The notes below the pieces were generated by a model. It saw only the letters and a program-made list of their open reading frames with translations. It was not told where the DNA came from and did not search any database. Positions 61,286 to 61,814 of a DNA stretch of 64,000 nt are shown here, one piece after another. The position numbers were made by a program, and so were the translations under genes. The stretch lies in assembly GCF_003018115.1 (NCBI RefSeq), contig NZ_CP027457.1. One strand, given 5' to 3'. The first letter of the stretch is position 1; each line of letters begins with the position of its first letter. Source of the DNA: Escherichia coli. Its GTDB lineage: Bacteria; Pseudomonadota; Gammaproteobacteria; Enterobacterales; Enterobacteriaceae.

Positions 61286-61302
61286 CCGATTGAGTTAACC
61301 TT

Positions 61303-61322
61303 GATATGGGAATTCCCATATC
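61303..61322. repeat. 20-bp perfect palindrome gatatgggaattcccatatc
   Basis: perfect dyad directly downstream of the ORF6N gene, upstream of the hok locus. Confidence 0.6.
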
Positions 61323-61556
61323 GGGAGAACATTACCATCGGGGATAAAATGATTTGCGGGGAAAGAAGAGTTAAGTAGAATTGCTGCGGGTGCTTGAGGC
61401 TGTCTGCCTCGGGCATGCCGCCGTAAGGCAGACAGAGAAAAGCCCCAGTTAACATTACGCGTCTTGCAGGACGCTTAACATTAATCTGAGGCCAATTTCA
61501 TGCTTTGCACATGTAGGTTAGCCTCTTACGTGCCGAAAGGCAAGGAGAAGCAGGCT

Positions 61557-61712
61557 ATGAAGCAGCAAAAGGCGATGTTAATCGCCCTGATTGTCATCTG
61601 TTTAACCGTCATAGTGACGGCACTGGTAACGAGGAAAGACCTCTGCGAGGTACGAATCCGAACCGGCCAGACGGAGGTCGCTGTCTTCACAGCTTACGAA
61701 CCTGAGGAGTAA
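61557..61712 (+). CDS. hok: Hok/Gef-family type I toxin
   Basis: MKQQKAMLIALIVICLTVIVTALVTRKDLCEVRIRTGQTEVAVFTAYEPEE: TM helix plus conserved RKxLCEhR and AxF.AYE motifs; in-frame upstream extension to 61500. Confidence 0.85.
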   Translation: MKQQKAMLIALIVICLTVIVTALVTRKDLCEVRIRTGQTEVAVFTAYEPEE

Positions 61713-61782
61713 GAGACCTGGCGAGGGAGAAATCCCTCGCCACCTCTGATGTGTCAGGCATCCTCAACGCACCCGCACTTAA

Positions 61783-61803
61783 CCTGCTTCGGCGGGTTTT
61801 GTT
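61783..61803 (+). terminator. terminator of hok mRNA
   Basis: cctgc-ttcg-gcggg hairpin plus T-run; preceded by ggcgaggg..ccctcgcc fold-back element. Confidence 0.6.
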
Positions 61804-61814
61804 GTATTAGAATA

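Follow-up and report, generated by a model that had tools for sequence, protein, structure and literature searches.

An apparently intact hok/mok/sok cassette of the HokD/HokW subgroup in the nin region of an Escherichia coli lambdoid prophage

Introduction

The hok/mok/sok system is a long-known RNA-controlled module. On plasmid R1, hok/sok kills plasmid-free cells, and it is reportedly also an abortive-infection defence against T4. The general mechanism that connects Sok, mok and hok has been described (PMC4147584, PMC1635323). A prophage-borne relative, hokW-sokW of Sakai Sp5, has been studied experimentally: HokW is toxic, and SokW, which is transcribed from its own promoter, neutralises HokW, partly via RNase III and Hfq (PMC8621323). 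After mitomycin C treatment, SokW is lost and HokW is induced, a response that depends on RecA, and deletion of hokW-sokW halves Sp5 phage release (PMC8621323). IS186 or IS150 lies next to hokC, hokE and hokA in E. coli K-12. The IS-free chromosomal loci hokA (E. coli C), hokB (K-12) and hokC (ECOR24) exhibit no post-segregational killing (summarised in bioRxiv 10.1101/2025.08.07.668861).

Here, a hok-like locus at 61290–61805 of the window, the 64,000-nt stretch of E. coli DNA that was analysed (NZ_CP027457.1), was compared with these systems. A sequence-only reading had proposed a Hok/Gef type I toxin–antitoxin locus with a hok-type structured mRNA inside a prophage, a proposal that Pfam, Rfam, folding, homology and gene context now support. 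With a probability of about 0.9, the locus is an intact hok/mok/sok cassette of the HokD/HokW subgroup, located in the nin region of a lambdoid prophage. It is an ordinary copy of an already known module.

Results

The hok toxin and its mRNA

The elements assigned to the locus are listed below with their strand and basis. The two fold-backs, the Hok reading frame, its in-frame extension and the terminator of the sequence-only reading are all present, with coordinates that agree within 1–3 nt.

61354–61381, plus strand: putative hok promoter, with -35-like TTGCGG (61354–61359), a 16-nt spacer and -10 TAGAAT (61376–61381); from position and homology.
61388–61803, plus strand: putative full-length hok mRNA, ~416 nt; from the Rfam model start, the terminator and the fold.
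61388–61399, plus strand: tac, the mRNA 5´ end GGGUGCUUGAGG, partner of fbi; from the minimum free energy (MFE) fold, the consensus and duplex energy.
61400–61435, plus strand: 5´ hairpin (first fold-back); from the MFE fold and an inverted repeat.
61508 to 61438, minus strand: predicted Sok RNA, 71 nt; from homology to sokW.
61487–61491, plus strand: Shine-Dalgarno-like TGAGG of mok, 8 nt 5´ of the ATG; read from the sequence.
61500–61712, plus strand: mok, 70 codons, in frame with hok and with a common stop codon; from the open reading frame and mokW/mokC geometry.
61515–61543, minus strand: putative Sok promoter, with -35 TTGCCT (61543–61538), a 17-nt spacer and -10 TAACCT (61520–61515); from homology.
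61520–61535, plus strand: ucb-like candidate box AGCCUCUUACGUGCCG, alternative partner of tac or dcb; from analogy to R1.
61542–61547, plus strand: hok Shine-Dalgarno AAGGAG, 9 nt 5´ of the ATG; read from the sequence.
61557–61712, plus strand: hok toxin gene, 51 aa plus stop; from a PF01848 match and homology.
61706–61717, plus strand: dcb-like candidate box GGAGUAAGAGAC, across the hok stop codon; from the RNAalifold consensus.
61714–61747, plus strand: post-stop hairpin (second fold-back); from the MFE fold and an inverted repeat.
61762–61775, plus strand: fbi CCUCAACGCACCCG, partner of the mRNA 5´ end; from the MFE fold, duplex energy and compensation in hokB.
61781–61803, plus strand: intrinsic terminator with a 7-bp stem, a UUCG loop and a U-rich tail; from a terminator scan.

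The 51-aa protein matches the Pfam family HOK_GEF (PF01848) over profile positions 1–42 of 42 with 82.9 bits (E=1.2e-23; cut-off 22 bits). Its identity is 100% to K-12 HokD/RelF, 92% to HokW, 82% to HokC and 39% to R1 Hok. The Hok motifs, a loss of which on alignment would have spoken against the locus, are kept, including in the comparison with HokD/RelF; the invariant columns C15, T17, L29, E31 and E40 are common to the window Hok, HokA–E, HokW and R1 Hok. Across 59 unique homologues, the hok coding sequence is nearly invariant while the untranslated regions vary, which suggests purifying selection on the Hok protein.

The -10 hexamer of the hok promoter lies 6 nt 5´ of the conserved mRNA start GG(G)(U)GCUUGAGG, and its location matches TATAAT of K-12 hokC and TATGAT of the R1-type locus. 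A consensus sigma-70 scan of 61200–61900 returned no site on either strand, both the hok and the Sok promoter falling below its threshold, so the hok promoter is assigned from position and homology. This result is not read as promoter absence, because both promoter positions are conserved with R1, hokC and hokW and because the Sok -10 hexamer has been validated by mutation in hokW. The predicted 5´ end of the mRNA is uncertain by ~3 nt, and transcription could start anywhere at 61385–61388, since the complementarity to the 3´ end reaches 61385; the 3´ end falls within the U tract.

The 416-nt transcript folds with an MFE of -181.4 kcal/mol, compared with -134.8 ± 6.3 kcal/mol for dinucleotide shuffles (z = -7.4; 0 of 100 shuffles equal it). 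The arms of the 5´ hairpin, CTGTCTGCC (61400–61408) and GGCAGACAG (61427–61435), sit in a 21-nt imperfect inverted repeat (61389–61409 and 61426–61446). One pair of this hairpin (alignment columns 15/47) changes from A-U to G-C among homologues, and the window carries G-C. The arms of the post-stop hairpin, GGCGAGGG (61720–61727) and CCCTCGCC (61734–61741), lie inside a longer repeat (61714–61728 and 61733–61747); in homologues, its pair 342/355 is G-U, A-U or G-C, and pair 344/353 is G-C or G-U. The terminator, AACCTGCTTCGGCGGGTT at 61781–61798 followed by TTGTTGTA, is kept in most of the 59 unique aligned homologues. The secondary structure on which the hok assignment partly hung is thus retained, with compensatory changes. 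Double-sided changes occur in 4 of the 112 consensus pairs; covariation is thin in this close family because its sequences are 95% identical, and hokB and R1 were therefore used for cross-family compensation.

Long-range pairing of the mRNA ends

In the MFE structure, 61388–61399 is paired with 61762–61774, a long-range interaction that the sequence-only reading had missed. The exact core of this tac–fbi duplex comprises 9 nt (61385–61393 and 61769–61777). Its energy is -21.5 kcal/mol, compared with -13.4 ± 2.2 kcal/mol when the 3´ untranslated region is shuffled. The tac–fbi pairs are kept in 55–59 of the 59 unique homologous mRNAs and also form in their consensus structure. In K-12 hokB, fbi lies at a near-equal distance from the stop codon (+48 vs +49), and two positions of its tac–fbi duplex are compensated (U-A to C-G and G-C to A-U).

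The alternative pairings of the R1 type are less distinct. The candidate duplexes have energies of -15.9 kcal/mol (tac with ucb) and -13.1 kcal/mol (ucb with dcb), and the RNAalifold consensus pairs 61523–61529 with 61708–61716, a ucb–dcb contact. When the full-length and truncated RNAs are folded singly by MFE, ucb pairs with 61548–61556, with neither tac nor dcb, so that ucb is assigned by analogy to R1 only. In MFE folds of six 3´-truncated transcripts, tac is freed and folds locally or elsewhere, and the R1-type tac–ucb pairing is absent.

The mok reading frame

The upstream extension of hok to 61500 had been recognised from the sequence; an ATG is present there and opens a 70-aa frame that ends at the stop codon of hok. 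This ATG lies inside the Sok target, the frame is open across the hok start, and the first three mok codons overlie Sok nucleotides 1–9. The TGAGGC at its Shine-Dalgarno-like element, inside the Sok-complementary region, is unchanged in 59 of 59 aligned homologues. The in-frame arrangement had been regarded as atypical, a view that the wider comparison does not bear out. K-12 mokC and 933W mokW are both annotated in frame, with a 57-nt offset and a stop common with hok, as is the frame in 53 of the 78 phage-contig loci that encode an identical Hok. Conversely, mok is out of frame in R1 (ATG 58 nt 5´ of the hok ATG) and in K-12 mokB. Three states are found among the phage-contig loci, namely the in-frame 70-aa form, a 19-codon frame whose TGA overlaps the hok ATG, and an R1-like +1 frame. 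Across the family, mok has no fixed frame with respect to hok.

The Sok antisense RNA

A Sok-like RNA had been expected on the minus strand at ~61470–61560. The promoter and the 5´ half of the predicted Sok fall inside this interval, but the RNA itself lies further left, from 61508 to 61438. These ends were transferred from the sokW misc_RNA of 933W (1597–1667, minus strand, in the compared 933W stretch) through a gap-free part of the alignment. The predicted RNA consists of a single-stranded 15-nt 5´ tail GCAAAGCAUGAAAUU, a long stem-loop and a 3´ end GGGGCUUUU with UUUU. It folds with -27.6 kcal/mol and leaves the 5´ tail free; an 81-nt version gives z = -4.7.

The minus-strand search for a -10/-35 pair led to TTGCCT and TAACCT, together with the stem-loop and the U tail, and the pair is assigned by homology. 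The -10 hexamer lies 6 nt from the start G (61508). With 7 of 12 consensus matches, this promoter is too weak for the scan. In the 'pro-less' mutant of sokW, destruction of the -10 hexamer abolishes antitoxin activity (PMC8621323). The primer used, YO-421, turns TAGGTTAG into CCGGCTCG, and comparison with the wild type places this change in the same -10 hexamer as that of the window Sok.

The Rfam family RF01794 ('sok') matches 61388–61562 on the plus strand over the full-length model with 117.3 bits (gathering score 59). In 5 of 5 annotated reference loci, RF01794 matches the hok-sense strand and the annotated sok lies opposite, inside the match. The 175-nt match therefore corresponds to the structured hok leader and was rejected as the location of Sok.

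A variable patch at the Sok 5´ tail

No other part of the locus varies nearly as much as a 22-nt patch (61493–61514), which spans the single-stranded 5´ recognition tail of Sok, the Sok discriminator and the opening codons of mok. Fourteen alleles occur among 76 phage-contig loci, all of which encode an identical Hok. We tentatively consider, at well below even odds, that diversifying selection or recombination acts on the patch as a cassette for specificity, which would keep the 2–10 hok/sok copies of co-resident lambdoid prophages orthogonal and leave the Mok peptide irrelevant. Each Sok would then silence its own hok only, and ribosome transit alone would matter. The Sok-tail alleles differ in 6 of 6 non-identical co-resident copy pairs; random pairing gives this with P ~0.40 (sum of squared allele frequencies 0.143), so these pairs support orthogonality neither way. 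In each of two further genomes there are three 1553-nt loci without a single difference, perhaps through duplication in the assembly. The allelic diversity, confined to the Sok tail, and the freely shifting mok frame could help studies of cross-talk among the many hok/sok copies of pathogenic E. coli. They extend known principles and add no new one.

Occurrence and prophage setting

The 516-bp region is present in 4721 of 5426 complete E. coli genomes and is 100% identical in at least 25 E. coli chromosomes among the matches listed. The prophage gene order comprises int adjoining ompW, cI/cro, O/P-like replication genes, the ORF6N antirepressor, hok, RusA and Q. The cassette thus has replication genes on one side and the Q antiterminator on the other, as in a nin region, and is adjoined by a RelE/HTH pair and the ORF6N antirepressor. 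Holin and lysozyme genes are located downstream of the locus in a matching genome, and the lambdoid prophage is apparently complete. An IS-damaged relic, as represented by K-12 hokA, hokC and hokE, was rejected: 61290–61830 contains no IS186 or IS150 ends, and the locus is not truncated.

Discussion

Proposed mechanism

The sequence elements described above are present in the window, and the mechanism proposed for them is inferred from work on R1 and hokW. A weak promoter would yield a stable mRNA of ~416 nt, in which tac (61388–61399) is locked to fbi (61762–61775), making the RNA inaccessible to ribosomes and to Sok. Slow 3´ trimming would remove fbi, and refolding would expose the ribosome-binding site of mok. 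Ribosomes that start at the mok ATG (61500) would then traverse the structured ribosome-binding site of hok and permit synthesis of the 51-aa membrane toxin; because mok is in frame here, a 70-aa extended form may also be made. Sok, constitutive, short-lived and 71 nt long, would use its free 15-nt 5´ tail to pair with the start region of mok, block the translation of mok and hence of hok, and mark the duplex for RNase III. Once sok is no longer transcribed, because the element has been lost or the prophage induced, Sok would decay first and Hok would be made. Partial data on differential stability, 3´ exonucleolytic activation and RNase III cleavage of the duplex come from hokW-sokW (PMC8621323).

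Expression and biological role

Judged from its sequence, the window copy is probably a complete and active RNA-regulated killer module, in contrast to the truncated hokD of K-12. The cassette might instead only look complete and be silent, with Hok never at toxic levels and the locus kept only as a passenger of the prophage. Such silence would fit the weak consensus matches of both promoters, the damage in 5 of 5 K-12 hok loci and the behaviour of the IS-free chromosomal loci, which show neither post-segregational killing nor activation by rifampicin (bioRxiv 10.1101/2025.08.07.668861). Every known regulatory element is intact in the window, however, the contrast between a nearly invariant coding sequence and varying untranslated regions in 59 unique homologues suggests purifying selection on Hok, and the 91%-identical hokW-sokW is demonstrably active (PMC8621323); we regard a silent cassette as unlikely. 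It is more improbable still, to the point of being barely credible, that hok is expressed only by read-through from the ORF6N operon and escapes Sok control, as K-12 hokD after relBE. The ORF6N gene (60734–61285) is on the same strand, hok starts 271 nt downstream, and the terminator scan revealed no canonical terminator between them. In contrast to K-12 hokD, the window contains a complete leader, a mok frame and a Sok gene, and in three loci a spacing of 6 nt separates the conserved -10 from the conserved start of the mRNA. Transcripts that read through from ORF6N would be extended at the 5´ end, yet they would still include the Sok target.

A role that is selfish or accessory to the prophage is most likely, either addiction or help with lysis at induction as for hokW-sokW. 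The absence of post-segregational killing by IS-free chromosomal loci renders the role of the window copy uncertain. A part in lysis and progeny release is plausible at somewhat less than even odds. The loss of SokW and RecA-dependent appearance of HokW after mitomycin C, with release halved in the absence of the locus (PMC8621323), argue for it, as does the location in a lambdoid prophage that looks complete and, in a matching genome, has holin and lysozyme genes downstream; the Sp5 effect is only two-fold, however, and the window prophage is a different phage from Sp5. Abortive infection against superinfecting phages is a possible alternative within this reading, against which stands the lack of hok enrichment near defence systems (bioRxiv 10.1101/2025.08.07.668861). 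Addiction, in which cells that lose the prophage are killed, is possible but rather doubtful. It would suit the R1-like architecture, with a stable structured mRNA and an antisense RNA with a free 5´ tail, and the 933W annotation reads 'prophage maintenance'. However, the cited literature contains no demonstration for a prophage hok locus, the chromosomal homologues do not kill after segregation (bioRxiv 10.1101/2025.08.07.668861), and the sole experimental study of a prophage copy found a lysis/release phenotype (PMC8621323). Students of this prophage may regard the locus as a candidate stabiliser of the prophage or modulator of lysis at induction.

The importance of the locus beyond correct annotation is small. 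RefSeq names the toxin gene hokD, also in the 100%-identical chromosomes, and labels neither mok nor sok, so that automated annotation conceals a complete RNA-regulated killer module.

Comparison with known systems

The order of elements in R1 hok/mok/sok (parB) is that of the window: -10, tac, 5´ hairpin, Sok target, mok, ucb, hok, post-stop hairpin, fbi and terminator. The Sok -35/-10 hexamers occupy homologous positions (TTGCGC/TATCCT in R1, TTGCCT/TAACCT in the window). The R1 locus resides on a plasmid and scores 89 bits with RF01794; its tac is one nucleotide shorter (GGCGCUUGAGG), and its fbi differs correspondingly. K-12 hokC (gef)/mokC/sokC has a tac, GGGUGCUUGAGG, identical to that of the window, scores 118 bits with RF01794 and carries an annotated sokC that lies antisense to the mok start. 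Unlike the window copy, hokC occupies a chromosomal non-prophage site, and IS186 interrupts its 3´ region and displaces fbi. Its Sok-target hairpin is shorter, ~18 nt being extra in the window and in 933W.

The hokW-mokW-sokW locus of Stx2 phage 933W (Sakai Sp5; AF125520) shares 91% DNA identity with the window over 439 nt, from the promoter to fbi. It also belongs to a lambdoid prophage, all three of its features are annotated, its mok has an equal offset (57 nt, in frame), and its sokW has the promoter hexamers and the stem-loop found in the window. The ~9% of positions that differ include some in the 5´ tail of Sok and the opening codons of mok (CTTTGCACATG vs CTGAACACATG). The four C-terminal residues distinguish the window Hok from HokW, the UUCG terminator hairpin of the window is absent from hokW, and hokW is located near the right end of 933W whereas the window copy is in the nin region.

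The toxin gene itself is that of K-12 hokD (relF) in the cryptic prophage Qin, which resembles the window prophage in having dicB, ydfC, RusA and Q-type genes nearby. The two loci are 98% identical in DNA over window positions 61543–61800, from the Shine-Dalgarno sequence through fbi and the terminator. In K-12, homology starts only at 61543, and relBE lies directly upstream; tac, the 5´ hairpin, the Sok gene, the mok start and ucb are absent, and neither sokD nor mokD is annotated. The window copy lacks the relBE-hokD arrangement and has a full leader in the place of relE. Of 78 related phage-contig loci, only 3 have relE-type upstream sequence. As the window carries the locus in its complete form, the name 'hokD' understates its content.

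The hok toxin gene and its mRNA

The 516-bp region at 61290-61805 carries an ORF (61557-61712, +) encoding the 51-aa Hok/Gef-family toxin proposed by the sequence-only reading; the peptide matches the whole HOK_GEF profile (Pfam; 82.9 bits, E=1.2e-23). In the alignment to hokD/relF and other hok loci that this reading had suggested, the protein is 100% identical to K-12 HokD (RelF), 92% to HokW, 82% to HokC (Gef) and 39% to R1 Hok. Its call of a hok/sok-like type I locus inside a prophage is supported, with two corrections that concern the mok frame and the place of Sok. The elements of the locus are arranged as follows.

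Elements of the hok/mok/sok locus (coordinates, strand, element)
61376-61381, +, predicted hok promoter -10 TAGAAT, 6 nt 5' of the conserved start GGGUGCUUGAGG (61388)
from 61388, +, tac, first 12 nt of the mRNA, paired with fbi in the MFE structure
61400-61435, +, 5' hairpin, after tac
61442-61493, +, Sok-target hairpin, after the 5' hairpin
61487-61491, +, mok SD TGAGG
61500, +, mok ATG
61508 to 61438, -, Sok (predicted)
61520-61515, -, predicted Sok promoter -10 TAACCT, upstream of Sok
61543-61538, -, predicted Sok promoter -35 TTGCCT, 17-nt spacer to the -10
61520-61535, +, ucb-like box
61542-61547, +, hok SD AAGGAG
61557-61712, +, hok
across the hok stop codon, +, dcb-like box
61714-61747, +, post-stop hairpin, followed by fbi and then the terminator
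61762-61774, +, fbi CCUCAACGCACCC, partner of tac in the MFE structure
61781-61798, +, terminator-like hairpin AACCTGCTTCGGCGGGTT, U-rich tail directly 3'

The hok -10 hexamer lies at the position of TATAAT in hokC and of TATGAT in the R1-type locus. The tac-fbi core is an exact 9-nt pairing that was also recovered as an inverted repeat whose arms are 375 nt apart. Both long fold-backs noticed at ~61397-61435 and ~61719-61742 were observed, with arms at 61400-61408/61427-61435 and 61720-61727/61734-61741, each within a longer imperfect inverted repeat, and the terminator read after hok was likewise found. The fold of the 416-nt transcript is 7.4 standard deviations better than dinucleotide shuffles, and RF01794 matches the hok leader at 117 bits (61388-61562, +). 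Because of the Pfam match, the Rfam match and the fold, the features of the locus are not due to chance.

RF01794 carries the name 'sok antitoxin', yet its match runs over the whole leader on the hok-sense strand. Its orientation was checked at five annotated reference loci (L001, L003, L006, L008 and L009); in K-12 hokC, hokB and hokE, 933W and the R1-type plasmid locus, the annotated sok lies inside the match on the opposite strand. The match thus confirms the leader and gives outer bounds for Sok without delimiting it.

In the hok coding sequence, a TACG is in phase at 61695-61698 (Tyr47 codon TAC plus G; context GCUUACGAAC), and another, at 61651, is out of phase. Motifs of this type have been reported as targets of A-to-I editing by TadA (Tyr to Cys) in hokB as well as in hokC, hokD and hokE (bioRxiv 10.1101/2025.08.07.668861).

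The reading frame of mok

The ATG at 61500 lengthens the hok ORF in frame to 70 aa. The sequence-only reading had recognized this extension and considered it atypical, mok being usually out of frame. The latter holds for the R1-type locus, in which the mok ATG lies 58 nt 5' of the hok ATG, and for K-12 mokB. The extension itself stands, but it is not atypical: in both K-12 mokC and 933W mokW the annotated frame is that of the hok gene, the offset is likewise 57 nt and the stop is shared, and the same arrangement (70 aa) occurs in 53 of 78 IMG/VR phage-contig loci encoding an identical Hok (the L011-L090 set). In-frame mok is therefore the common state of this subgroup. The remaining loci comprise one 66-nt in-frame variant, 17 with a 19-codon ORF that ends in a TGA overlapping the hok ATG (ATGA), two with an R1-like +1 frame (68 codons), and five with no leader or no mok ATG, three of them relE-type; ATA replaces the mok ATG in one surveyed locus. 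The mok reading frame is thus polymorphic among near-identical loci in the region homologous to 61500-61560. Conservation concerns the presence of an ORF that begins within the Sok target and brings ribosomes to the hok start, and not the frame or the peptide of mok.

The predicted Sok antisense RNA and its variable 5´ tail

Sok had been expected on the minus strand around 61470-61560. The strand was correct, whereas homology to sokW of 933W (L001 1597-1667), through a gap-free alignment stretch, places the RNA at 61438-61508. The minus-strand -10 and -35 that the sequence-only reading had proposed to look for are assigned as listed. The hokW 'pro-less' mutagenic primer of Takada et al. alters the sokW -10, and the mutant has no antitoxin activity (PMC8621323). 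Comparison of this primer with wild-type hokW sequence shows that the altered hexamer is exactly the one assigned here, which by analogy lends experimental support from hokW to the -10 assignment. Sok is predicted to be 71 nt long, with 15 unpaired nt as its 5´ tail followed by a long stem-loop and a terminal GGGGCUUUU; R1 Sok has been described with the same architecture. Pairing of R1 Sok is started by its 5´ single-stranded leader, according to work cited in PMC1635323.

Per-column variability among 59 unique homologous mRNAs (95% mean identity) peaks sharply at 61497-61515 (mean entropy 0.67-0.71), compared with ≤0.43 in other 10-column bins and ≤0.07 within hok. The 22-nt patch at 61493-61514 comprises Sok nt 1-15, the Sok discriminator, and the mok spacer and first codons; 14 alleles occur among 76 phage-contig loci encoding an identical Hok. 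Co-resident copies carry different alleles in 6/6 cases, which is not significant (chance P ~0.4). That patch alleles make co-resident hok/sok copies orthogonal is therefore a hypothesis and not a result.

Structure conservation, mechanism and role

The consensus structure of the 59 mRNAs includes tac-fbi, the 5´ hairpin, the Sok-target hairpin and the post-stop hairpin, with both-sided changes in four pairs. In hokB, tac-fbi is kept at nearly the same distance from the stop codon (+48 versus +49) with two compensated positions, and in the R1-type locus GGCGCUU pairs with AAGCGCC. MFE folds of 3´-truncated mRNAs free tac and do not form the tac-ucb pairing of the R1 model; this duplex is computed to be feasible (-15.9 kcal/mol).

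We adopted the R1/hokW mechanism (PMC4147584, PMC1635323, PMC8621323), the sequence elements of which are present. The full-length hok mRNA would be inert because its two ends are paired, and 3´ trimming would allow it to refold. Translation of hok would require that of mok; Sok would block the mok start and set off RNase III cleavage, and Hok would be made once sok transcription is lost.

The biological role is less certain than this molecular mechanism. The locus could serve prophage addiction or defence, or could contribute to lysis and release when the prophage is induced; of these, the last alone has been supported by experiments on a prophage copy. The intact elements and a hok coding sequence that barely varies across the 59 mRNAs make a silent relic unlikely.

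Prophage context and neighbours

The context was read from the best-matching genome, NZ_CP027462 (99.6% identity over 44000-64000), in which a lambdoid prophage is integrated beside ompW with its integrase at ~50.5 kb in window terms. The order is int, xis, exonuclease, dicB, cI-like and cro-like repressors, YdaT and O/P-type replication genes; then an ORF6N antirepressor, hok, a convergent HTH and RelE-family pair and DUF968; then RusA, Q, tRNAs, holin and lysozyme. This places the hok locus inside the prophage and, within it, in the nin-type region that separates the replication genes from Q. The prophage spans ~50500 to 64000 and continues past the right window end.

Upstream, Rfam matches to isrK (60495-60569, +) and C4 antisense RNA (60595-60679, +) are directly followed by the ORF6N-domain antirepressor gene (60734-61285, +); 60495-61285 is a P1/P7 immI-like, Gifsy-like antirepressor control module within a lambdoid prophage. 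A perfect 20-bp palindrome, GATATGGGAATTCCCATATC (61303-61322), lies 18 nt past the ORF6N gene stop and 5´ of the hok promoter. No U tail follows it, and it may be bound by a protein or form a hairpin at a transcript end. It is missing from the hokW locus of 933W, where homology with the window begins at ~61346.

Convergent with hok is a type II toxin-antitoxin-like pair (61815-62523, -), consisting of a 105-aa HTH_3/XRE protein (61815-62132, -) and a 132-aa PF06296 RelE-family protein (62125-62523, -; E=8e-33) with overlapping genes. Type I and type II modules are thus back to back, which recalls relBE-hokD of K-12 Qin.

Elsewhere in the window, two rdlD-family antitoxin RNAs (8560-8625 and 9095-9160, +; 83.6 and 91.8 bits) indicate another, unrelated type I family (ldr/rdl) in the chromosomal part. 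RtT RNA (131 bits) and two tRNA matches at 25291-25672 (-) look like the tyrT/tyrV-rtT locus.

Distribution and comparison with known hok loci

Many complete E. coli chromosomes carry the 516-bp region at 100% identity, O157:H7, O26, O145 and O91 strains among them; all that is annotated there is 'hokD: type I toxin-antitoxin system toxin HokD'. Versions of the region are present in 4721 of 5426 complete E. coli genomes (median 2 copies, maximum 10), and 101 records of deposited phages match. The match to Stx phages 933W and VT2-Sakai is 91%, and the locus there is annotated mokW, hokW and sokW. Both the system and the kind of place it occupies are known.

K-12 hokC, hokE and hokA are flanked by IS186 or IS150 insertions, none of which is found at the window locus. 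The K-12 hokD region matches the window solely at 61543-61800 (98% identity); upstream of the matching part it has relE, where the window has its own leader. Since the match begins at 61543, tac, the Sok gene, the mok start and the ucb-like box are all missing from K-12 hokD. The window carries the hokD locus in its complete form.
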